From contig JBCBZT010000004.1 in assembly GCA_039815185.1 (NCBI GenBank), positions 64,001 through 128,000 of the forward strand: a stretch of 64,000 bases of DNA, written 5' to 3'. Both the position numbers and the translations under genes were made by a program. Numbering within the stretch: the first letter of the stretch is position 1; every line of letters begins with the position of its first letter. The DNA is from Cyanobacteria bacterium P01_A01_bin.123. GTDB lineage: Bacteria; Cyanobacteriota; Cyanobacteriia; Phormidesmidales; Phormidesmidaceae. A model generated the notes under the pieces. It had not been told where the DNA came from and made no database searches. It was given only the letters and a program-made list of their open reading frames with translations. Of the stretch, positions 1,256 to 25,721 are shown one piece after another.

Positions 1256-2557
1256 TTACTGCTTGGCCGAGGATCTGCGCCGCCTACCCCCACCCGTTTT
1301 CACCTGGGGCTGGGAGCGCCCTTGGCCGTGGCGTCGCGGTTGTGACCGTCCCTGACTGGGCCGTGTTCGTCCCTTGCCGTTGCGTCCATTTTGAATCGGT
1401 TCTGGTTGGATGCTAAGGTCCGGCTCGTAACCCTCTAGAACAATCTTGGGAATCTCGCGTTTCAACAGTCGTTCGATATCCCGCAACAGCTTATGCTCAT
1501 CCACACACACGAGGGAAACGGCTTGTCCCTCGTTGCCAGCGCGACCCGTGCGGCCAATCCGATGCACATAGTCTTCTGGCACATTGGGCAATTCGTAATT
1601 CACCACGTGGGGAAGCTGGGCAATATCTAAACCCCGGGCTGCAATATCGGTGGCAACCAACACCCGCACGCCGCCGCTCTTAAAGGCTGCCAAGGCTCGG
1701 GTGCGAGCCCCCTGACTCTTGTTGCCATGGATAGCAGCGGAACTCAGACCGTCCTTTTCTAGCTGCTGAGCTAAACGGTTAGCCCCGTGCTTGGTGCGCG
1801 TAAAGACCAACACCTGACGCCAGTTTTGGGAACCGATCATGTGGCTGAGCAATTCTCGCTTACGGCTTCTATCCACGGGGTGAACGACCTGATCGATCCC
1901 CTCTGCGGTGGCATTTTGGCGGGCGACCTCAATCAGCTCAGGACTGTTAAGCAACCGATCCGCTAACCGTTTAATGTCATCGGAGAATGTGGCAGAGAAA
2001 AGTAAATTTTGGCGATCGCCTCTTTCAGGCAGTAACGCCAGCACCTTACGGATGTCATGGATGAAGCCCATATCCAGCATGCGATCAGCTTCGTCCAGTA
2101 CCAGGATTTCGATTTGCGACAAATCCACCGTCTTCTGCCCTGCGTGATCGAGCAGCCGACCGGGTGTGGCCACCAGGATATCAACCCCCCGTTGCAGCTT
2201 TTGGATCTGTGGATTGATTTTGACACCGCCGAAAACCACTGCCGATTTCAGCGACAAGTGACGACCGTAGGTTTCCACACTGTCACCAACCTGGGCTGCC
2301 AACTCCCGAGTTGGAGTCAGTACTAGGGCTCGAATGGGTCGCCGCCCCTTCTTAATCGGTTTTACGCTCAGCCGCTGCAACATTGGCAGTGTGAAACCGG
2401 CCGTCTTGCCGGTGCCAGTTTGGGCACCCGCCATCACATCTTTACCTTCCAGAATCACAGGAATCGCTTGATGCTGGATCGGGGTGGGCTCACTGTAACC
2501 CTGCTCGTCGATGGCGCGCAGGAGTTCGGCCGAGAGGCCGAGGGTATCGAATGACAT
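1256..2557 (-). CDS. rhlE: DEAD-box RNA helicase, RhlE/CrhC type
   Basis: Q motif, [31 protein letters not shown] and a basic C-terminal tail. Confidence 0.93.
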
Positions 2558-2646
2558 TAGGGGTATTACTCCGGATTTGCCTTCTCGGTAGCAGCATTTG
2601 CAGACTGGAACCGATCTGGGCTGGATAAGTGAATTCTTTAGAGAGT

Positions 2647-2751: not shown

Positions 2752-2980
2752 TCTTATTAACTATTGCTTTATGCCAAACTCAAAACTCCATCCTATGTCA
2801 AAACCCTACTGCAAGAGAAATGACCTGTTGGTTTAAAGGCAATTCTCCCCGTTACAGTATTGGGAGCAGCTTCATTTCAATCCACCTGCTGGCTTTGGTT
2901 TCATCCCAACCCATGAATAAATCTGTGGGTGATAAGGGCAGATTTGCGGGGTGAGTGGCTGTTTTGAGCCTTGGGGTGAC

Positions 2981-3565
2981 TTATGAGGCAGCTCGATCAC
3001 CCGATCTGATTTTTTCGATGATGTCATCTGTATCGACAATAACCGCAAACTCATCGTGCAAGCTTGCTAAGGCAGTTGCATGGATTTCTTCTGATGTGTA
3101 GTGTTTACCGTCATAACTCGTTCGTTCAAAAGTGGCCGTTCCATCTGAGACTAAAAACACCCTAAACCCAAGATTGGCCGCCATCCGGATTGAGGTAGAA
3201 ACACAATGGTCGGTTGTTAAACCCACAACGACGAGTGAATCAATAGTGTTGTCTCGTAGATGCGATTCTAGGGATGTGCCAATGAAAGCACTATTAACCG
3301 TCTTTTGGAAAATGGGTTCATGGCTCAACGGTTTCACTTCAGATTTAAACTCGCAGCCAGGTTGATCCGCTCGCAACGGAGATTGTGGCGAAACTGATAA
3401 ATGCTGGATATGGATAACAGGGCGACCAGTTCCCCGCCAAATCTGTAAAAGCCGAGCCATATTGTTTTCTGCCTGGAGATTATTACGTTCTCCCCAAACG
3501 AAATCGTCGAATCCCTGTTGAACATCAATGAGCATTAACGCGGTATTTGAAGGAATATTTGCCAT
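2981..3565 (-). CDS. isochorismatase-family cysteine hydrolase
   Basis: TALMLIDVQQGF, K-x2-NSAF, GLTTDHCVSTS. ATG at 3565 preferred over 3592. Confidence 0.9.
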   Translation of the reverse strand: MANIPSNTALMLIDVQQGFDDFVWGERNNLQAENNMARLLQIWRGTGRPVIHIQHLSVSPQSPLRADQPGCEFKSEVKPLSHEPIFQKTVNSAFIGTSLESHLRDNTIDSLVVVGLTTDHCVSTSIRMAANLGFRVFLVSDGTATFERTSYDGKHYTSEEIHATALASLHDEFAVIVDTDDIIEKIRSGDRAAS

Positions 3566-14952: not shown

Positions 14953-14993
14953 TAGCATTCCAGCGATACTCAGTGCATTTAGCAATTTGGCCA
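14953..14993 (+). repeat. partial (3' half) copy of the 105-bp repeat
   Basis: AGCATTCCAGCGATACTCAGTGCATTTAGCAATTTGGCCA directly after the CHAT1 stop. Confidence 0.8.
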
Positions 14994-15031
14994 AAGTAAT
15001 ATACGCAGCTGCGAGTTTTGGAGGTAGGGCA

Positions 15032-17881
15032 ATGATGAAGCGCTCTAGATGGCGATCGCGTTTGTTAGCCATAACCCTAGCGGTGGCAACCTGGCTATGG
15101 GTCACGGTGCCAGCCCAATCGACGCTTCCCTATTATCAGGAACATAATTTTCCATCGCAGGCGGCTTTTAGCCATGAGGCCCGCCAAACTAAGCAGCAAG
15201 ATTCAGATGGCACAGTCTTGCTTGAGGTTGAGGGCACCTTAGAAGCGGGCGATCAAAGGCTTGAAGATGGCAGTCTCTATGACATCTACCCGTTTGAAGG
15301 GGAAGCCGGGCAATCCATTACCATTCGGATGATGAGTGATGAGTTTGACACGTTTATCGGGGTGGTCAACACGGCAGGGGAATTGATTTATGAATCAGCC
15401 GCGAACTCCAACTTATCGGTATTCTTACCTGAAACGGCAACTTATCAGATCATTGCCACCATTTTTGATGACAGCGGGCAGGGGCAATACCGACTAACCG
15501 TATCAGCGGCTAGCGCCTCTGAAACGCAGCTAGCCGAAGCCAACCACCTACGTCAGCTAGGCATTCAGCAATATTTGACTAGCCAGTTTCAATCCGCACT
15601 GCAATCTTGGCAGCAAGCGATCGCGATTTATCGTTCTAGCGACATTCGCGAAGCATTTCCAGAGGCAAGCCGCCAAGGTGAAGCCGCCGCCTTGGGCAAC
15701 TTAGGACTCGTTTATCATGCCTCCGGTCAATATCAACAGGCCATTGACTTTTACCAGCAATCTTTAGCAATCGCTCGCGAAATCCGCGATCGCCAGGGTG
15801 AAGCCAATGCGCTGGGCAACTTGGGCAGTACCTACAGTAGCCTAGGCCAATATCAACGAGCGACTGACCTACACCAGCAATCCTTAGCGATTAAACGCGA
15901 AATTGACGATCGTCGGGGCGAAGCTACCTCTCTGGGCAATTTGGGCAATATTTACCGTTCCCTAGGGCAGTATGAACAGGCAATTGCCGCTTATCAACAA
16001 GCTTTAGACATTGCTGACGAAATTAGGGATATTGACATTCAAGCTGCTGCTCTAAGCAATTTAGGTCTTGTTTATCTTGCATTAGGTGAATATCAGCAAG
16101 CGCTTGACCTACATCAACAAGCTTTAGCGATTGCCCGTAACACAGGTAATCGTCAGAGCGAAGCTTATTCTTTGGGCCATTTAGGAATTGCTTATTACGC
16201 TTTGGGTCAGGATCAGCGCGCCATTGATTTCTATCAACAACAGTTAACGATTGTTCGCGACATTGGCGATCGCCAAGGGGAAGCTAGTGTCCTCAGCTAT
16301 CTTGGCGGTGTTTACAATACTCTGGGACAATCTCAGCAGGCTATTGAGTTTCATCAGCAATCTTTGGACATTATTCGCGACATCGGCGATCGCCAAGGGG
16401 AAGCCATGGCGCTTAATAGCTTGGGGATATCGTTAATCAGCACCAATCAACCGGCTGAAGCTGAAATTGTCCTCGCGCAATCCATTGAGATCTTTGAATC
16501 CCTGCGAACTGACCTACCGGATGCCCAACTCATTGCACTCGCGGATACCCAGGCAGGCGCCTATACGCTGCTAGAACTGGCATTAACCATCCAAGACAAA
16601 ACAGCCGAAGCCCTAGAAACCACAGAACGTGCCCGCGCCCGCGCCTTCGTGCTGCAACTCGCAAGCCGCCTCTCCAACCGAGAAGAGTCAACTCCCTTAG
16701 CTGAACCTGAGGCCACCCCACCTCCCAAGATTGCCGACATTCAGCAAATCGCCCGCGACCAAAACGCCACCCTCGTCACCTATTCCCTGATTTATGATCG
16801 GGCGCTCTATATCTGGGTCGTGCAACCGTCCGGCGAGATTGAGTTTCGCTCGGTGGAATTGGGTGGGTCTGGCAGTCTTCCTAACCCAATTGCCGCCATT
16901 GATGGCCCAGTTTATCGGGGCAATTCAGACCCGTCAGAACTGGACACCCTGGTTTCAGAAACACGGGCCGGCATTGGTGTGGTTGCAAGCATCCCCTCTG
17001 AACGGCTCAAAGACCTGCATCAAGTGCTGATTGAACCGATTGCCGATTTACTGCCCAGCGATCCTGACGCCAACGTCGTTTTCATCCCCCAAGGCAGTCT
17101 CTTTTTAGTGCCTTTCCCTGCCCTGCAAGATGCCGACGACACCTACTTGATTGAAAAACATACGGTATTGACTGCGCCATCCATTCAGGTCTTTGGGTTA
17201 GCAGCTAGGGAGGAAGCCCAAGGGCGGCGTTCTGAGTTTTCTGATGCGCTCGTTGTGGGTAATCCAGTCATGCCCCAAGCTTGGGCTTTGGGTGATAACG
17301 GGCTAGAAGAACTCCAGCTTGCCCCCCTGCCCGGTGCCGAAGCGGAAGCCTTGGCAATCGGCGACTTCCTCAATGTTTCACCCCTGATTGGTGCTCAAGC
17401 CACCGAGGCCCAGATCAAACAACAATTCCCGAGTGCTCAACTCATTCACCTGGCGACCCATGGCTTACTCGAATACGGCGATCCCCAGTCCTCGGGCGTT
17501 CTGGATGTCCCCGGTGCCCTAGCCCTCACCCCTGGCGATGGCGAAGACGGCTTGCTAACTGCCGCCGAGATTCTAGAAATAGACTTGCAGGCTGAGCTAG
17601 CGGTTCTGAGTGCTTGCGACACAGGACGGGGGCGGATTACGGGAGATGGCGTGGTCGGGCTTTCACGATCGCTGATTACGGCTGGCGTGCCCAGCGTAAT
17701 TGTGTCGCTGTGGGCCGTACCCGATGCACCGACAGCTGCGTTGATGACAGAGTTTTATCGCCAGCTCCAGCAGGGGCAGAGCAAGGCTCAGGCGCTACGG
17801 CAGGCGATGTTAGCAACATTGAACGACTCCCCGGAACCGGTCAATTGGGCAGCGTTTACATTAATGGGAGCAATCGAATAG
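15032..17881 (+). CDS. PPC-TPR-CHAT protein 2
   Basis: GAGGT ribosome-binding site followed by ATGATGAAGCGC, as in paralogs 3 and 4. Same architecture with the His/Cys dyad intact. Confidence 0.92.
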   Translation: MMKRSRWRSRLLAITLAVATWLWVTVPAQSTLPYYQEHNFPSQAAFSHEARQTKQQDSDGTVLLEVEGTLEAGDQRLEDGSLYDIYPFEGEAGQSITIRMMSDEFDTFIGVVNTAGELIYESAANSNLSVFLPETATYQIIATIFDDSGQGQYRLTVSAASASETQLAEANHLRQLGIQQYLTSQFQSALQSWQQAIAIYRSSDIREAFPEASRQGEAAALGNLGLVYHASGQYQQAIDFYQQSLAIAREIRDRQGEANALGNLGSTYSSLGQYQRATDLHQQSLAIKREIDDRRGEATSLGNLGNIYRSLGQYEQAIAAYQQALDIADEIRDIDIQAAALSNLGLVYLALGEYQQALDLHQQALAIARNTGNRQSEAYSLGHLGIAYYALGQDQRAIDFYQQQLTIVRDIGDRQGEASVLSYLGGVYNTLGQSQQAIEFHQQSLDIIRDIGDRQGEAMALNSLGISLISTNQPAEAEIVLAQSIEIFESLRTDLPDAQLIALADTQAGAYTLLELALTIQDKTAEALETTERARARAFVLQLASRLSNREESTPLAEPEATPPPKIADIQQIARDQNATLVTYSLIYDRALYIWVVQPSGEIEFRSVELGGSGSLPNPIAAIDGPVYRGNSDPSELDTLVSETRAGIGVVASIPSERLKDLHQVLIEPIADLLPSDPDANVVFIPQGSLFLVPFPALQDADDTYLIEKHTVLTAPSIQVFGLAAREEAQGRRSEFSDALVVGNPVMPQAWALGDNGLEELQLAPLPGAEAEALAIGDFLNVSPLIGAQATEAQIKQQFPSAQLIHLATHGLLEYGDPQSSGVLDVPGALALTPGDGEDGLLTAAEILEIDLQAELAVLSACDTGRGRITGDGVVGLSRSLITAGVPSVIVSLWAVPDAPTAALMTEFYRQLQQGQSKAQALRQAMLATLNDSPEPVNWAAFTLMGAIE

Positions 17882-17916
17882 TGAGGTTACCCGGTCGATT
17901 TTTTTGAGGTGGGGCA

Positions 17917-20805
17917 ATGATGAAGCGCTCTAGATGGCGATCGCGTTTAATAGCCGTAACCCTAGCGATCGCGACATGGCTGTTAGTGACGGTGCCCGCA
18001 CAATCCACTCTCCCTTTCAATTGGGAAGACAATGTCTGGCTGCAGACAGTTGCGAATCGTCAAAATGTCCAGCAAAACAATGTCCTGCGAACAAAGCAAC
18101 AAGATTCAGGGCAGACAGTCTTGCTGAGGGTTGAAGGGGTTTTAGAAACAGGTGATCTAGCTTTCGAGGATGGCAGCCTCTACGACGTTCATCCCTTTGA
18201 AGGCGAATCAGGGCAAGCCATCACGATTCACATGATGAGTGACGAATTTGACACTTATTTAATCCTGGTCAATGCAGAAGGAGAAGCCATTGGCAGAAAT
18301 GACGATTCAACATCCTTAGAAACCAACTCAACCCTGACAATATTGCTGCCTGAAACAGGGACTTATCGCATCATTGCTAACGCGTTTGATGCCACTGGAC
18401 AAGGAAACTATCAAATAACGGTTTCAATCGCGAGTGATTTTGAGGTTCAGCAATTAGAAGCTGATCGTTTGTTCCTCCAAGGCGGTCAGCAATATCAAGT
18501 CAGCCAGTTTCAAGCTGCTTTGCAGTCTTGGCAGCAAGCCTTAGAGATTTATCAATCCATCGGCATGTCTGAAACAGCAGTTTACGCCTTAAGCGGTATA
18601 GGCAATGCCTATTTTTCCCTAGGTCAATATCAGCAAGCCAGCAGTTTTTACCATCAATCTTTAGAGATGGCTGATGATCTCGGCGATCGCCAAGCCCAAG
18701 CCACTGCTCTTGGCAACTTAGGTCTGATTTACGAAGCTTTAGGTCAATATCAGCAAGCGATTGAATCGCATCAGCAATCCTTAGCTGTCGATCGCGCCAT
18801 TAACAATCGTCGAGGAGAAGCCGTTTCCCTAGGCAACTTGGGTAATGTCTATTATTTTCTAGGTCAATATCAACGAGCCATTGAGTTTCATCAGCAATCG
18901 TTGGCTATCAATCGCAACATCAGCAATCGTCAAGGAGAAGCCGTTTCCCTAGGGAATTTAGGGCTTGCCCATGGCGCATTAGACCAGTATCAGCAGGCAA
19001 TTGACTTGCATCAGCAATCGTTGGCTATCAATCGCGATATTGGTAATCGTCAGGGAGAAAACACGACCCTCGATAATTTAGGGAGTGTCTATTATTCATT
19101 GGGTCAATATCAGCAAGCACTTGACTTGTATCAGCAAGCTTTGGACATCGCTCTCGAAATTGGCGATCGCCAAGGCGAAGGCAACCTCCTTGTCAATCTG
19201 GGTGAAATTCACAATGCCCTGGGTCAATATCAGCAAGCGCTTGACTTGTATCAGCAAGCCTTGGGTATTGCTCGCGAAATTAGCGATCGTCAAGTGGAAG
19301 CCATTGCTCTTAATAACCTCGGTTCGTTGTTCATCAGCACCAATCAATGGGCTGAAGCTGAAATCGCACTAACACAATCTATCGAAGCCTACGAATTACT
19401 GCGAACTGATTTAAGCGATACTCAACTCATCTCTATCGCCGATACCCAAGCCGCTACCTATGCCCACCTAGAAAAGGCATTAACCGCCCAAGGCAAAACA
19501 GCCGAGGCACTAGAAACCACAGAACGCGCCCGCGCTCGCGCCTTCGTGCTGCAACTTGCGAGCCGCCTCTCCAACCCGGAAGAACCAGTTGCCCCAGATG
19601 GCTCTAATCTAGATGGCTCTAACGGTGTAAATTCTGCTTCTATTGCTGAGATTCAGCAAATCGCCCGCAACCAAAACGCCACACTCGTCACCTACTCCCT
19701 GATTTTCGATGAAGCTTTGTATATCTGGGTCGTGCAACCCTCCGGCGAGGTTGAGTTTCGCTCGGTGGAATTGGGTGAGTCTGATAGTCTCCCCAACCCT
19801 ATTGCCACGATTGATGGCCCCGTTTATCGCGGTGATTCAGATGCTTCAGAACTAGACACCTTAGTTGCCGAGACGCGGGCAGGCATTGGGGTTGTGGCTA
19901 ACAGCATTCCTTCTGAACGACTCAAAGACTTGCACCAGATTTTGATTGATCCAATCGCAGATTTACTCCCGACTGATCCCAATGCAAATGTCGTTTTCGT
20001 GCCCCAAGGGAGTCTCTTCTTAGTGCCGTTTGCGGCCTTGCAAGATACTGACGGCACCTACCTGATCGAAAAACACACGGTATTAACTGCCCCGTCAATT
20101 CAGGTGTTAGGGCTAGTGTCTAGGGACGCCCCTGGCCAGAGCAGTGCAGCGTTGTTACAACAAGATAACGCCTTAGTGGTGGGGAATCCGCTCATGCCAG
20201 AGGTTGTCGTTCTGGGTGATGAGGGACTACAACCCATTCGACTTGCTCCCTTACCTGGAGCCGAAGCTGAAGCTTTAGACATTGGCAATTTCCTCAACAT
20301 TTCGCCCTTGATTGGCGATCAAGCCACCGAAGCCCAGATTAAGCAACAGCTTCCCACGGCTTCCCTAATTCACCTGGCAACTCACGGCTTGCTCGAATAT
20401 GGTGACCCCCAATCTTCCGGCGTTCTAGATTTACCGGGTGCCCTGGCCCTCACCCCTGGCGATGGCGAAGACGGATTGCTGACTGCCGCCGAGATTCTAG
20501 AAATGGACTTGCAGGCCGAGCTAGCGGTTCTAAGTGCTTGCGATACAGGGCGTGGACGAATTACGGGAGACGGTGTGGTAGGGCTGTCGCGCTCCTTAAT
20601 TACAGCTGGCGTCCCCAGCGTAATTGTGTCGCTGTGGGCGGTTCCCGATGCGCCCACAGCTGCGTTGATGACGGAATTTTATCGTCAGCTCCAGCAGGGG
20701 CGGAGCAAGGCTCAGGCGCTACGGCAGGCGATGTTAGCAACGTTGAACGATTCACCGGAACCAGTCAATTGGGCAGCGTTTACATTAATGGGAGCAATCG
20801 AGTAG
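17917..20805 (+). CDS. PPC-TPR-CHAT protein 3
   Basis: Same architecture; IHLATHG and LSACDTG present. Confidence 0.92.
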   Translation: MMKRSRWRSRLIAVTLAIATWLLVTVPAQSTLPFNWEDNVWLQTVANRQNVQQNNVLRTKQQDSGQTVLLRVEGVLETGDLAFEDGSLYDVHPFEGESGQAITIHMMSDEFDTYLILVNAEGEAIGRNDDSTSLETNSTLTILLPETGTYRIIANAFDATGQGNYQITVSIASDFEVQQLEADRLFLQGGQQYQVSQFQAALQSWQQALEIYQSIGMSETAVYALSGIGNAYFSLGQYQQASSFYHQSLEMADDLGDRQAQATALGNLGLIYEALGQYQQAIESHQQSLAVDRAINNRRGEAVSLGNLGNVYYFLGQYQRAIEFHQQSLAINRNISNRQGEAVSLGNLGLAHGALDQYQQAIDLHQQSLAINRDIGNRQGENTTLDNLGSVYYSLGQYQQALDLYQQALDIALEIGDRQGEGNLLVNLGEIHNALGQYQQALDLYQQALGIAREISDRQVEAIALNNLGSLFISTNQWAEAEIALTQSIEAYELLRTDLSDTQLISIADTQAATYAHLEKALTAQGKTAEALETTERARARAFVLQLASRLSNPEEPVAPDGSNLDGSNGVNSASIAEIQQIARNQNATLVTYSLIFDEALYIWVVQPSGEVEFRSVELGESDSLPNPIATIDGPVYRGDSDASELDTLVAETRAGIGVVANSIPSERLKDLHQILIDPIADLLPTDPNANVVFVPQGSLFLVPFAALQDTDGTYLIEKHTVLTAPSIQVLGLVSRDAPGQSSAALLQQDNALVVGNPLMPEVVVLGDEGLQPIRLAPLPGAEAEALDIGNFLNISPLIGDQATEAQIKQQLPTASLIHLATHGLLEYGDPQSSGVLDLPGALALTPGDGEDGLLTAAEILEMDLQAELAVLSACDTGRGRITGDGVVGLSRSLITAGVPSVIVSLWAVPDAPTAALMTEFYRQLQQGRSKAQALRQAMLATLNDSPEPVNWAAFTLMGAIE

Positions 20806-20831
20806 TCGGTCGATTTTTTTGAGACGGGGCA

Positions 20832-23468
20832 ATGATAAAGCGCTTTAGATGGCGATCGCGATTAATGGCCTTAACCTTAGCAGTGGCAATCTGGCTGTGG
20901 GTCACGGTGTCAGCTCAATCAACTTACCCTGCTTATCCAGAAGGCAATGGTCTACCACAGGTAGCTTTTAGCCATGAGACCCGTCAAACTAAGCAGCAAG
21001 ACTCGGATGGCACGGTCTTACTTGAAGTCGAAGGCACCTTAGAAACGGGCGATTTAACGCTTGAGAATGGCAGTCTCTACGATATTCATCCCTTTGAAGG
21101 TGAAGCCGGGCAGGTCATCACGATTCAGATGATCAGTGATGAGTTTGACACGTTTATCGGGTTGGTAAACCCCGCGAGACAACCCATTGGTGAAAACAAC
21201 GACACAACGGCCTCAGAGACGAACTCAACCCTGACGATAACGCTGCCTGAAGCCGGAATGTATTTGATTATTGCCATTGCCTTTAATGACGCCGGGCAAG
21301 GGAACTATCGGTTAATCGTTTCAACCGCTAACCCCGCTGAAATTCAGCGATTAGAAGCTAACCATCTGCTCGATCAAGGCAATCAATACTATCGAACCAG
21401 CCAGTTTCAAGCCGCGCTGGAATCTTGGCAGCAAGCGTTAGACCGTTATCAATCGATTGGCGAAACCTATGGCACGAGCAAAGCTCTACGCACCAGCGAA
21501 GCGATCACGCTAGACCACTTGGGTCTTGCTTACTATGCTCTGGGTCAATATCAGCAGGCGATTGAGTTCCATCAGCAAGCCTTAGCAATTGTTCGCGAAA
21601 TCGAGCTTCCTCAACTGGAAGCAAACACGCTGGACAACTTGGGACGGACTTACTATGCTCTGGAACAGTATCAGCAGTCGCTTGAATCCTATCAGCAAGT
21701 GTTGGAGATTGCTCGCGAAGTCGGCGATCGTGAGGATGAGGCCGACGCTCTGAGCAACTTAGGACTCGCCTATCATGCCCTAGGCCAATATGAACGTGCT
21801 ATTGACGTTTATCAGCAATCGCTGGCAATCGCTGGCAACATCGGCGATCGCCAAGGGGAAGCGAATGCCCTCAACAATCTTGGCGGTGTTTATGATGCTT
21901 TGGGTCAATCTCAGCGCGCGATCGCGTCTTATCAGCAGTCTCTAGACATTACCCGCGACATCAGCGATCGCAGCGGTGAAGCCAAGTCTCTGAGTAACTT
22001 AGGTCTATCGTTGATCAACACCGATCAACTCGCTGAAGCTGAAAGCGTCCTCGCGCAATCCGTTGAAATCTTTGAATCCCTGCGAACTGACTTACCTGAT
22101 GCCCAACTTATTGCACTCGCAGATACCCAAGCCGCTACCTACACACTGCTAGAACAAGTGTTGATAGCTCAAGGTAAAACCGCTGAAGCCCTGGAAACCA
22201 CAGAACGTGCTCGCGCCCGCGCCTTCGTACTGCAACTTGCGAGGCGTCTCTCAAACCGGGAAGAGCCCACTACCATAGCCGAACCCGAAGCCATAGCGCT
22301 GCCCACGATTGCCGAAATTCAGCAAACTGCCCGTGACCAAAACGCCACACTGGTGACCTATTCTCTGATTTTTGATCAAGCCTTGTATATATGGGTCGTG
22401 CAACCTTCCGGAGAGATTGAGTTTCGCTCAGTTGGGTTTGACGGGTCTGGCAGTCTCTCGAACCCGATCGCCGCCATTGATGGCCCAGTCTATCGGGGCA
22501 ACTCAAACCCCTCAGAACTCAACACCCTAATCGCAAACTCACGCAGAGGCATTGGCGTTGTCGAAGGAATTTCCACTGAACAACTCAAGGCACTGCACCA
22601 AGTGCTGATTGATCCAATTGCCGATTTGTTGCCCACCGATCCAGAAACCAATGTTGTTTTCATCCCTCAAGGCAGTTTATTCCTGATTCCCTTTGCAGCA
22701 CTGCAAAATGCGGCGGGAACTTACTTGATTGAAGCGCACACGGTGTTGACTGCGCCGTCGATTCAGGTATTGGATTTAACGAGTCAGGAAGCCCAAGGGG
22801 GGAGAAGAGAAGGGTTTTTATTGCACGATAGGGCATTGGTGGTAGGAAATCCAGTGATGCCTGAGGTGTGGCTACCGAGTGAAGATGGCTTACAAGCGTT
22901 ACAGCTTGTGCCCCTTCCTGGTGCAGAAGTCGAAGCGTTGGCGGTTGGCGATTTTTTAGACGTTGCACCATTGATTGGCGATCAAGCCACCGAAGCGCAG
23001 GTCAAACAGCAGCTTGCCAATGCTTCGCTGATTCACTTCGCGACCCATGGCTTGCTGGAATATGGCGACCCTCAAGCTTCCGGAGTGCTGGATATACCAG
23101 GCGCTCTAGCCCTGACTCCCGGCAATGGCGAAGATGGCTTACTGACGGCAGCTGAGATTCTAGAGATGGACTTGCAGGCCGAGCTAGCAGTTCTCAGCGC
23201 CTGCGATACAGGACGGGGGCGGATTACGGGAGATGGTGTGGTCGGACTGTCGCGCTCCTTAATTACAGCTGGTGTGCCCAGCGTGGTCGTATCGCTATGG
23301 GCGGTTCCCGATGCACCGACAGCGGCGTTGATGACGGAATTTTATCGTCAACTCCAACAGGGGCAAACCAAGTCTCAAGCTTTACGGCAGGCCATGTTAG
23401 TGACCCTAAAGAATTCTCCAGAACCCATCAACTGGGCAGCGTTTACGCTGATTGGCGCATCAGATTAG
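20832..23468 (+). CDS. PPC-TPR-CHAT protein 4 (fewer TPRs)
   Basis: Same architecture; IHFATHG and LSACDTG present. Confidence 0.92.
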   Translation: MIKRFRWRSRLMALTLAVAIWLWVTVSAQSTYPAYPEGNGLPQVAFSHETRQTKQQDSDGTVLLEVEGTLETGDLTLENGSLYDIHPFEGEAGQVITIQMISDEFDTFIGLVNPARQPIGENNDTTASETNSTLTITLPEAGMYLIIAIAFNDAGQGNYRLIVSTANPAEIQRLEANHLLDQGNQYYRTSQFQAALESWQQALDRYQSIGETYGTSKALRTSEAITLDHLGLAYYALGQYQQAIEFHQQALAIVREIELPQLEANTLDNLGRTYYALEQYQQSLESYQQVLEIAREVGDREDEADALSNLGLAYHALGQYERAIDVYQQSLAIAGNIGDRQGEANALNNLGGVYDALGQSQRAIASYQQSLDITRDISDRSGEAKSLSNLGLSLINTDQLAEAESVLAQSVEIFESLRTDLPDAQLIALADTQAATYTLLEQVLIAQGKTAEALETTERARARAFVLQLARRLSNREEPTTIAEPEAIALPTIAEIQQTARDQNATLVTYSLIFDQALYIWVVQPSGEIEFRSVGFDGSGSLSNPIAAIDGPVYRGNSNPSELNTLIANSRRGIGVVEGISTEQLKALHQVLIDPIADLLPTDPETNVVFIPQGSLFLIPFAALQNAAGTYLIEAHTVLTAPSIQVLDLTSQEAQGGRREGFLLHDRALVVGNPVMPEVWLPSEDGLQALQLVPLPGAEVEALAVGDFLDVAPLIGDQATEAQVKQQLANASLIHFATHGLLEYGDPQASGVLDIPGALALTPGNGEDGLLTAAEILEMDLQAELAVLSACDTGRGRITGDGVVGLSRSLITAGVPSVVVSLWAVPDAPTAALMTEFYRQLQQGQTKSQALRQAMLVTLKNSPEPINWAAFTLIGASD

Positions 23469-23562: not shown

Positions 23563-23601
23563 GACAATCATCACAACTACAAAACAACAGCGCTGGGGCA
23601 A

Positions 23602-23706
23602 TATAGCAGTCGCCAGTCTGGTTAGGACACGACTGCGAGCCAGATTGCTTGTGGACTCAGCACCCCAGCGATACTCGGTGCATTAGGCAATCTGGCCAGC
23701 GCTATA
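23602..23706 (+). repeat. 105-bp dispersed structured repeat, variant full copy
   Basis: Same length, ends and 3' half as the other copies, but a different 5' hairpin. Abuts the psbA stop. Confidence 0.9.
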
Positions 23707-23707
23707 T

Positions 23708-24805
23708 TTAGCCGATAGACGGTGATCCAGGGGTTGCCACTGGCACAACATCATTAGCTGCCAAATCGAGCGGAAAGTTATGCGCATTGCGCTCGTGCAT
23801 CACTTCCATGCCTAGATTGGCTCGGTTAATCACATCTGCCCAAGTGCCAATTACACGACCCTGTGTATCCAAAATGGACTGATTGAAATTAAATCCATTC
23901 AGGTTGAATGCCATGGTGCTGATGCCCAATGCTGTAAACCAGATACCGAACACGGGCCAAGCGGCAAGGAAAAAGTGGAGTGACCGACTATTGGCCTTGA
24001 CACCCAAAACGATCTCATTGGTTCGCCCTACCAGACGACCAAAGTAGCCATGGGCCGCCATGATGTTGTAGGTTTCCTCTTCTTGACCAAACTTGTAGCC
24101 GTAGTTCTGAGACTCAGTCTCGGTGGTTTCCCGAACTAAGGTAGAGGTCACTAGGGAGCCGTGCATCGCACTAAAAAATGCACCGCCAAATACCCCCGCT
24201 ACACCCAACATGTGGAAGGGGTGCATCAAGATGTTGTGCTCAGCTTGGAACACGAACATGAAGTTGAAGGTACCCGAGATACCCAAGGGCATGCCATCAG
24301 AGAAGGAACCCTGACCCAAGGGGTAAACCAAGAACACAGCGGTAGCTGCGGAAACGGGTGCAGAGTAAGCCACACAAATCCAAGGACGCATGCCCAATCG
24401 GTAGGACAGCTCCCACTGACGACCCAGATAAGAAAAAATGCCGATGAGGAAGTGGAAGACAATGAACTGGTAAGGCCCACCGTTGTACAACCACTCATCG
24501 AGGGAAGCTGCTTCCCAGATGGGGTAGAAGTGCAGGCCAATGGCGTTGGAGGAAGGTACCACTGCACCGGAGATGATGTTGTTGCCGTACATCAAGGAAC
24601 CGGCAACGGGCTCACGGATACCGTCGATGTCAACGGGAGGAGCGGCGATGAAGGCGATGACGAAGCAGGTGGTGGCAGTCAGCAGCGTGGGGATCATCAA
24701 TACGCCAAACCAACCTACATAGAGGCGGTTTTCGGTGGAGGTGATCCAGTTACAAAACCGCTGCCACAGATTGACGCGATCGCGTCTCTGCAGAGTTGTG
24801 GTCAT
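23708..24805 (-). CDS. psbA: photosystem II D1 protein, atypical QB-loop variant (365 aa)
   Basis: Near-canonical D1 with Y161, D170, E189, H190, H198, H215, H252, H272, H332, E333, H337, D342 and A344 equivalents present, and Q130. Residues 259-266 are replaced by 13 aa. Confidence 0.97.
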
Positions 24806-24840
24806 GGTTAAGGATAAAGAAAAACGACATGATAAAGCAG

Positions 24841-24927
24841 TTAACTAACTAGATAGTTAAACTAACTTGTTAGTTAATTTAAAGTAGGAATTTAAATCTG
24901 TCAATGACTTTTTAACTAGTTAGTTAA
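24841..24927. promoter_or_regulatory. three palindromic putative TetR operators in the psbA/tetR divergent promoter
   Basis: AACTAAC-TA-GATAGTT (24843-24858), perfect AACTAAC-TT-GTTAGTT (24860-24875), and TTTTAAC-TA-GTTAGTT (24910-24925). Confidence 0.8.
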
Positions 24928-24994
24928 TTTCTTGCGAGAAGCTACCCTGGCTGAACCCAGATGGAGCATCGTATTCTAGGTATAGACACCTTGT

Positions 24995-25669
24995 ATGGAG
25001 CCCGTAGTGAAGTCATCAGCCAAAGGCAAACGATCCGCGACAACTCGAACAGTCCGCAATCCAGAATCTACCAAGGCGCAAATTCTAGATGCTGCTGAGG
25101 AAGAGTTTGCCCGCTATGGGTTGGCAGGAGCCCGAACCGAGCCAATCGCCGCCAATACAGGCGTGACTAAAGCCATGATTCACTACTACTTCGGTACTAA
25201 AGAAGAGCTGTATCAGGCTGTTTTGAAGCGCCACGCAGCGTCTTTTCTAAATGCGGTTGAGCAGCTCGATCTAAATGATTTATCACCTGAAGAAGCCCTA
25301 AAGAAGATTCTGAGGCTTGCTGTCGTGCACGAAAGTACGCAGCCCTATCAAGGTAAAGTTCTGCTCCACGAAGCGATGACCAATGAGGGTAAATATTTCA
25401 AGCTCACGGGATGGGAAGTTCCACTCGGTACATTGGCAGAAGTTTTAGCAAGAGGCGTCAAGGAGGGCTGTTTTCGCACCCTCGATCCTTGGTTAACGAT
25501 GGTTCACATTATGGGGGTGATAACCTTTTACTTCAACGCAGCCAATAACCTTAAGCAACTTGCGCCCTTGAACGACTGTCAAAGTCCAGAAGCAATTGAG
25601 CAATTTGAAGAGTCTGCGATCGCGTTTATCCTAGCAGGTATACTCAAGCAGCCTTTAGTGGACGATTAG
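24995..25669 (+). CDS. TetR/AcrR family transcriptional regulator
   Basis: ILDAAEEEFARYGLAGARTEPIAANTGVTKAMIHYYFGTKEELY helix-turn-helix, plus a TetR-type C-terminal domain (GVKEGCFR). Confidence 0.95.
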   Translation: MEPVVKSSAKGKRSATTRTVRNPESTKAQILDAAEEEFARYGLAGARTEPIAANTGVTKAMIHYYFGTKEELYQAVLKRHAASFLNAVEQLDLNDLSPEEALKKILRLAVVHESTQPYQGKVLLHEAMTNEGKYFKLTGWEVPLGTLAEVLARGVKEGCFRTLDPWLTMVHIMGVITFYFNAANNLKQLAPLNDCQSPEAIEQFEESAIAFILAGILKQPLVDD

Positions 25670-25721
25670 GCTCACAAGGGTTCATCGTGGTCTGGCTGTT
25701 CGGCATCGCCTTCAACACTAA

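Follow-up and report, generated by a model that had tools for sequence, protein, structure and literature searches.

A regulator-facing psbA paralogue with a rebuilt QB loop as a candidate inducible replacement D1

The 64,000-nucleotide window analysed here (the whole stretch of DNA, to which coordinates without a locus name refer) carries a psbA paralogue for a photosystem II D1 protein whose QB loop has been rebuilt and whose water-splitting side is standard. The gene (23708..24805, minus strand) lies head-to-head with a TetR-family regulator gene (24995..25669, plus strand). The conserved loop, the intact donor side, the presence of canonical D1 copies in the same genomes, palindromes private to the locus and the detox-type targets of sister TetRs all speak for one reading. 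The variant is, on balance, probably a replacement D1 whose expression is induced by a ligand and which withstands a natural inhibitor of the QB site.

The open reading frame comprises 365 codons without an internal stop, the length given in the original prediction, and its product scores 750.3 bits against the D1 profile TIGR01151 (cut-off 596.05). Translation and alignment to the housekeeping D1 of the host (contig C124, 88% identical) and to Synechocystis D1 (PDB 6wj6) place the rebuilt loop at 23993..24031 (minus strand). These 39 bases encode 13 residues where canonical D1 has the eight residues IFQYASFN (259–266), a net gain of five. The replaced loop, the five-residue insertion and the loss of Ser264 and Phe265 that had been predicted are thereby confirmed, as is the retention of H215, H252, F255, L271 and H272. 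The donor side of the host protein is standard (D170, E189, H190, H332, E333, H337, D342, A344 and Y161). The side changes L210F, S222T, V249M and I/V281F, also predicted, are present in this allele, but they form no cluster shared by the clade; L210F, S222T, V249M and V281F occur in 6, 18, 5 and 1 of 52 distinct variant sequences. The further pocket changes of the clade lie elsewhere, at F211, G256, F274 and L275, which vary in 18, 6, 16 and 15 of the 52 variants and in none of 90 canonical sequences, a set picked by its YASF motif and consisting mostly of phage D1. The variation at F211, F274 and L275 may reflect relaxation or compensation.

The loop is 13 residues long in all 52 distinct variant protein regions, with the consensus [VIL]GR[TLM]NE[IVALM][ILV]LG[VTA]xA, in which G260, R, N, E, L, G and A are invariant. 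Counted back from N267 in a register that derives from an alignment, residue 263 is glycine and residue 266 alanine throughout, residue 264 is valine (29), threonine (19) or alanine (4), and residue 265 is polar and variable. S264 or F265 is found in none of the 52, against 90 of 90 in the canonical set picked on that very motif. H215, L218, V219, A251, H252, F255, L271, H272 and E244 are unchanged in every variant counted, and so are H332, E333, H337, D342 and A344. Residue 130 is glutamate, the photoprotective form of D1, in 44 of the 52 and glutamine in the host allele. The residue count leaves aside the most divergent allele, L084 (L084:97-1191, minus strand, on G026:C40), which has a loop of 12 residues (+4), two perfect palindromes and the changes Y254F, F255L, G256S, L271N, W278L, F211L and M214L.

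The original prediction described focused remodelling under selection rather than decay, and named an assembly artefact or a strain-unique allele under relaxed selection as grounds for abandoning that view. Neither was found. Assembled contigs from two of four public runs, both from one study, span the loop with 0 differences (Logan contig X1 record 2, 23899–24107, depth 38.8; X2 record 9, 23676–24107, depth 80.1). X1 may be the source sample, and X2 is another strain, with 26 differences over 24626–25700. When all loci are pooled, the loop occurs in 45 distinct alleles. Codon statistics (Nei–Gojobori over all pairs, which are non-independent and near saturation) for 23 coding sequences give pS 0.70 and pN 0.128 over the 13 loop codons, with pN/pS of 0.028 for the nine core codons and 0.58 for the four variable ones. 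Outside the loop, dN/dS of the gene body is 0.024, against 0.049 for nine canonical copies. By these measures, the loop is under strong purifying selection and, with synonymous sites near saturation, its lineage is old. Decay of a redundant copy, or an artefact, is ruled out for practical purposes by the selection statistics, the exact independent contigs and the fixed loop length. What speaks for decay is that two of the 45 alleles are broken (L004/L106, without the 5' half, and L066, frameshifted), and for this reason the cassette is considered dispensable in some lineages.

Two AlphaFold2 models, both of low confidence, bear on the shape of the loop. The first, from 27 near-identical sequences, has a pLDDT of 35; the second, from 91 sequences, has a mean pLDDT of 57 (59–75 over residues 251–300) and fits D1 with a TM score of 0.59 and an rmsd of 10.5, a weak model from which only the secondary structure is used, as a hint. 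In both, the de helix runs on to residue 267; the second shows G-V-K-A-N as a loop before helix E, in agreement with the alignment register. On this modelling, the de helix is probably lengthened in the variant. Some alleles read GRL-[IV]GRL at the loop, and it may be speculated that the insertion arose as a one-turn duplication.

A longer de helix would also suit a retuned acceptor side, in which the loop alters the redox potential, protonation or specificity of the QB site, or forms a new stromal docking surface. Specificity might then extend to another quinone or to an external redox shuttle such as a phenazine, and the TetR would sense that molecule or a metabolic state. Most of the invariant loop positions are polar, which gives the impression of a built surface and not of a loss of contacts, and the prevalence of E130 points the same way. 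Alternative quinones or exits have been proposed for atypical D1 in PMC4408414. However, in 27 loci the variant has no linked gene for quinone synthesis or for a redox partner, sister TetRs face detox-type genes, and H215, L218, V219, A251, H252, F255 and L271 are unchanged in all 52 variants. Retuning is thus an unlikely reading, though one to be taken seriously.

In a loop-free tree of 37 rows, the variants form no clade and are placed among the copies of Group 4, the standard D1. An AU test rejects variant monophyly for codons 12–200 (p = 0.00015) and does not reject it for codons 201–344 (p = 0.10). The 5' half of the host variant has 82–94% DNA identity to C124 over codons 31–240, and up to 97% to a copy on contig C115. 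It also shares the C-ending codons of housekeeping genes, a preference absent from the 3' part (Phe TTC:TTT 13:3 versus 4:9). Most simply read, gene conversion keeps the 5' half similar to the housekeeping copies and is resisted by the QB half; a codon bias common to both genes could be a partial cause of the likeness. The Q130 of the host allele is therefore probably borrowed. The C115 copy (G000:C115:1-1209) has Q130 as well and is 92% identical to the variant over 247 residues. After codon 247 this copy is interrupted by 468 bases that occur once in the assembly and represent an insertion or a mis-join.

The divergent TetR gene and the operator-like palindromes, which the original prediction did not include, carry most of the functional information. 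The two genes are 189 bp apart. The predicted psbA promoter (24876..24904, minus strand) consists of a -35 box TTGACA (24904–24899), a 17-nt spacer and a -10 box TAAATT (24881–24876); consensus matches occur in the region at chance frequency (2 versus 2.1), and the promoter is conserved in TetR-linked loci. A sequence scan identified the perfect palindrome AACTAAC-N2-GTTAGTT (O1, 24860..24875) abutting the -10 box and a copy with one mismatch (O2, 24843..24858) in the predicted 5' leader. A third operator-like site (O3, 24910..24925), just upstream of the -35 box, has one perfect half-site and three mismatches in the other. O1 is the sole perfect palindrome in the 8.1-Mb genome, and the 16-mer at up to one mismatch occurs at two sites, both at the cassette. 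In five other carriers, the cassette holds 10 of 13 sites, including all six perfect ones, and the remaining three are within the control count.

The regulator is a protein of 224 amino acids that matches the profiles PF00440 and TetR_C_29. Among the best 30 TetR matches in 173 genomes of the order, 27 face psbA, and the loop is of the variant type in all 23 psbA-facing loci that reach it. A regulator gene is faced by 38 of the 40 alleles with readable upstream DNA, namely a TetR gene by 30 and a gene for an HTH-NB-ARC-WD40 protein by eight; among the rest of the 45 alleles, five are cut off and two differ. The palindrome is present at up to two mismatches in all 30 TetR-facing alleles. By comparison, one of 25 other psbA starts has a regulator neighbour (upstream DNA is available for 24, and several are 5' fragments). 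The locus thus shows the anatomy of a TetR divergent cassette, with a TetR_N helix-turn-helix, a C-terminal ligand domain, a head-to-head gene and a palindrome over the promoter, and the TetR would be expected to bind the palindromes and repress psbA. In a TetR tree, 29 of 32 D1-linked TetRs form a supported clade. Those of L084/L085 and L028 fall outside it, and a single origin of the linkage is thus unsupported. Among the contigs listed for RNA run X9, none crosses the loop or lies on the TetR gene, and only psbA of other organisms appears; seven RNA runs shared 5–8% of the words with the query.

The HTH-NB-ARC-WD40 loci (L002, L003, L008, L019, L021, L168, L178 and L181) represent a second regulatory design. 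Here the variant faces an NB-ARC/NACHT-WD40 protein of about 1,200 amino acids with an N-terminal HTH_VMAP-M9-like domain, and all eight psbA promoters contain three to four TAACTTT direct repeats about 10–11 bases apart.

Other neighbours vary. An arylamine N-acetyltransferase gene and an AraC gene lie directly 3' of the variant in two MAGs (L010:3806-4639 and L012:5460-6293), and an amidase gene lies beside it in two loci (L001:3025-4503 and L024:2132-3598). These neighbours are suggestive of aromatic amine or amide handling and are not conserved; across the loci compared, no detox gene accompanies the cassette consistently. In L024 the variant stands behind the amidase without an operator. 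This arrangement may come from a mis-join, because a TetR gene lies next to a psbA 5' stub at the end of a contig in that genome (L060). In the window, a Uma2-like fragment and a cytochrome P450 gene (25722-27462, minus strand) converge on the TetR gene, and three tandem paralogues for secreted PPC-like/TPR/CHAT-domain proteins of 964, 962 and 878 amino acids, the third profile-scanned, occupy 14987-23468 (plus strand). The P450, peptidase and CHAT-TPR genes were rejected as cassette parts, being unconserved beside other cassettes. A hairpin-forming dispersed repeat (23601-23707) lies just 3' of psbA; it gives about 210 BLAST hits across the genome, and its depth in public contigs is very high.

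The targets of related regulators indicate what the TetR may sense. At 12 non-D1 loci with TetR relatives of 42–52% identity, five face Rieske oxygenases, four face FAD oxidoreductases, one lies in a region with an arylamine acetyltransferase and two face nothing clear. The best PDB match for the Rieske partners is dicamba O-demethylase (E 4e-11), and one Rieske gene is followed by an MFS transporter. A further set of 22 sister-TetR loci, three of which overlap with the 12, includes eight flavin monooxygenases of the urate/3-hydroxybenzoate hydroxylase type, six Rieske oxygenases, one EmrA-type adaptor, two D1 and five others or none; three of the eight and four of the six were profile-scanned, the others being assigned by near-identical N-termini. 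None of the partner enzymes reaches an equivalog cut-off, so that annotation is at family level. Because the partners are oxygenases and flavin enzymes, the regulator family appears to respond to small aromatic or heterocyclic ligands.

A second odd D1 was found head-to-head with a related TetR (48% identity) at L046 (psbA 1480-2562, minus strand; TetR 2761-3411, plus strand; G004:C237), with one operator-like site. It differs by D170E, N87A, I89V, G90A, F158L, M172L, V185I, E244D, I259L, F260W and N266H, mostly on the donor side, and keeps S264 and F265. Control by this TetR family therefore need not mean QB-site resistance, and service to a D1 changed elsewhere lends retuning of the acceptor side some support. 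No second D1 of this type was found among 21 further TetR loci. Since the same family serves both proteins, a set of ligand-selected D1 isoforms may exist.

The cassette recurs in a range of cyanobacteria, with a patchy distribution. A search of 185,579 species genomes for HGYxGRL and RxLHFF...WP set further apart than usual returned 28 loci. The same +5 loop is present in 27 of them, and the remaining one, L027, was rejected as a frameshifted canonical psbA. Named carriers belong to Leptolyngbya, Nodosilinea, Halomicronema, Adonisia, Vacuolonema, Coleofasciculus, Microcoleus and Gloeocapsopsis and include a Chroococcidiopsidaceae MAG; a protein search added Anabaena and Chroococcales labels. 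Cultured carriers are Leptolyngbya sp. PCC 7375, Heron Island J, Nodosilinea strains, Gloeocapsopsis crepidinum LEGE 06123 and Adonisia turfae CCMR0081. In an even class sample, the loop pattern occurred in 11 of 301 genomes, the host included, with 0 control matches. Among viruses, the strict pattern gave 0 matches and the loose pattern 12, none encoding D1. In metagenomes, 6 of the 119 loci among the loose-pattern matches listed encode the variant, and the rest are mostly chance. A 24-base pattern over 401 genomes gave 21 matches, of which three are real, a chance-level yield that was kept out of the counts. The best 150 hits of a representative-genome search contained no further loop types.

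Mats, crusts and reefs are the habitat of many of the carrier taxa, and the best-matching public runs are labelled marine and coral. Canonical D1 is also present in all six carrier genomes examined (the host and five others); the host has one full canonical copy and several contig-end pieces. In Nodosilinea (L013, L018, L020, L025, L094 and L097) the cassette site lies between rbcL-rbcX-rbcS and psbO; at L097 this site retains only a broken TetR gene without psbA, and the cassette is elsewhere in that genome. Genome G080 carries two cassettes.

By its donor side and markers, the variant is a Group 4-type D1 that fails a canonical feature of the QB site. It shares with standard D1 (TIGR01151; PDB 6wj6/7n8o) the Mn4CaO5 ligands, TyrZ/H190, H198, H215, H272, E244 and H252, together with G80, F158 and T286. 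The ligand set of Group 3 and Group 4 D1 (D170, E189, H332, E333, D342, A344, H337 and Y161/H190) is complete in it, as in the definition of standard D1 by complete Mn ligands in PMC4408414. It differs from Group 4 in the replacement of I259–N266 by 13 residues without S264 and F265, and in being an accessory, regulator-facing copy.

The Group 2 "rogue" D1, reportedly also treated by Murray in 2012, offers a parallel for a loss of Ser264, and the variant is about 66% identical to one such protein (L051). As described in PMC4408414, rogue D1 is likewise accessory and has lost S264, its QB site being likened to that of herbicide-resistant mutants. Unlike the variant, it is without the Mn ligands and, in most cases, E244, and it carries one extra residue at G253. 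A brake-like role has been proposed for it, and the rebuilt loop might similarly occlude the QB site, so that induced centres assemble but pass no electrons and a chemical signal throttles photosystem II and reactive oxygen. In favour of this, the two distal hydrogen-bond partners of QB have changed, five residues are added, S264A/G also occurs in rogue D1 (PMC4408414), and L084 adds F255L, L271N and W278L. However, rogue D1 silences its donor side, whereas all 52 variants retain H332, E333, H337, D342, A344, E244 and H252, and active water splitting that has no outlet would do harm. This retention is partly due to gene conversion, but the residues other than D170 and E189 are not in the half that was clearly converted. 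A brake is accordingly quite improbable.

The variant is not a member of Group 1, Group 2, Group 3, D1FR or, by its reported markers, D1INT. The G80A, F158L and T286A changes of the low-oxygen Group 3 D1' are absent. D1INT, whose function is said to be undefined, reportedly carries tryptophan at 126 and 260 (Sheridan, 2020); Y126 and G260 are invariant in 27 variants. The far-red cluster of the host lies separately on contig C95, with a far-red D1 (78%) and a ChlF-like gene (54%), labels that derive from identity and clustering with psbD; ChlF lacks Mn ligands. D1INT, D1FR and Group 3 D1' resemble the variant as specialist, water-splitting-competent proteins of patchy distribution (Sheridan 2020, as cited in PMC12096807). 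They keep YASF, whereas the variant does not.

In the preferred reading, an inducible replacement D1, the system would resemble inducible resistance by target replacement. In the two-gene cassette, a TetR dimer on the palindromes flanking the psbA promoter would keep the variant off. A small, probably aromatic competitor at the QB site would bind the TetR and release it, and the variant D1 would then enter photosystem II through normal D1 turnover. To judge from its sequence, it could still split water, because the donor-side ligands are all kept, and with H215, H272 and H252 it would still bind plastoquinone and the non-haem iron. With the Ser264 hydroxyl replaced by Val, Thr or Ala, the Phe265 ring by a polar residue and the de helix probably longer, the inhibitor would bind poorly. 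The price may be slower QA-to-QB transfer, which would account for an accessory, repressed copy beside normal D1. Ligand, induction, assembly and resistance are what we infer from this anatomy. Substitution of Ser264 by Gly, Ala, Asn, Pro or Thr confers triazine/urea resistance (PMC8398153) and Ser264 substitutions slow QA–QB transfer (PMC4408414). The QB pocket residues are listed in PMC6999049 and PMC8398153, and natural QB-site inhibitors exist, for example gliotoxin, on docking evidence (PMC6999049).

Herbicide-resistant point mutants (S264G/A/T) resemble the variant in the lost Ser264 hydroxyl and in residues 211, 255, 256, 271 and 275, changed in parts of the variant clade (PMC8398153). 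They are single substitutions in a housekeeping gene under man-made herbicides, whereas the variant is an old rebuild of the whole loop in a separate, regulated copy. One D1 substitution suffices for resistance. A 13-residue rebuild far exceeds that need and fits a new function equally well. TetR-controlled divergent detox or efflux cassettes and inducible resistant-target paralogues typically have the head-to-head gene, promoter palindromes and one-gene regulon seen here. The difference is that here the target is a photosystem core subunit, for which no case was found in the literature searched.

The supplement of Cardona et al. 2015 (PMC4408414), in its accessible part, contains three such sequences, including those of PCC 7375 and Heron Island J, and the searchable text of that paper does not discuss them. 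Kim et al. 2025 (PMC12096807) describe S264 and F265 as well conserved and, in the passages and supplement available, do not mention the variant. No published description of the loop was found in a literature search whose scope lay outside Sheridan 2020, Oliver 2023 and Oettmeier 1999, and the cassette is apparently undescribed as a system.

To our knowledge, the QB site is considered almost invariant in oxygenic phototrophs, and the D1 isoform switches known to us respond to light or oxygen. Models of QB binding and protonation give Ser264 a central place, and a natural, selected D1 with a whole water-splitting side and a rebuilt loop is a ready-made test of these models. Many mat- and biofilm-forming cyanobacteria carry a regulator-facing spare D1 that probably serves an on-demand, inhibitor-resistant photosystem. 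We propose tentatively, with slightly less confidence than in resistance itself, that these are chemically inducible swap-in photosystem II cores. The TetR, or independently the HTH-NB-ARC-WD40 protein, would sense a natural QB-site toxin or redox molecule, and the pocket would work without Ser264 and Phe265 by another hydrogen-bond and protonation route. The TetR and its operator offer a reporter for finding the ligand, and cultured carriers exist. If the proposal is true, small molecules would join light and oxygen as triggers of D1 exchange, a new level of control over photosystem II, and the switch would testify to chemical warfare on photosynthesis in microbial mats.
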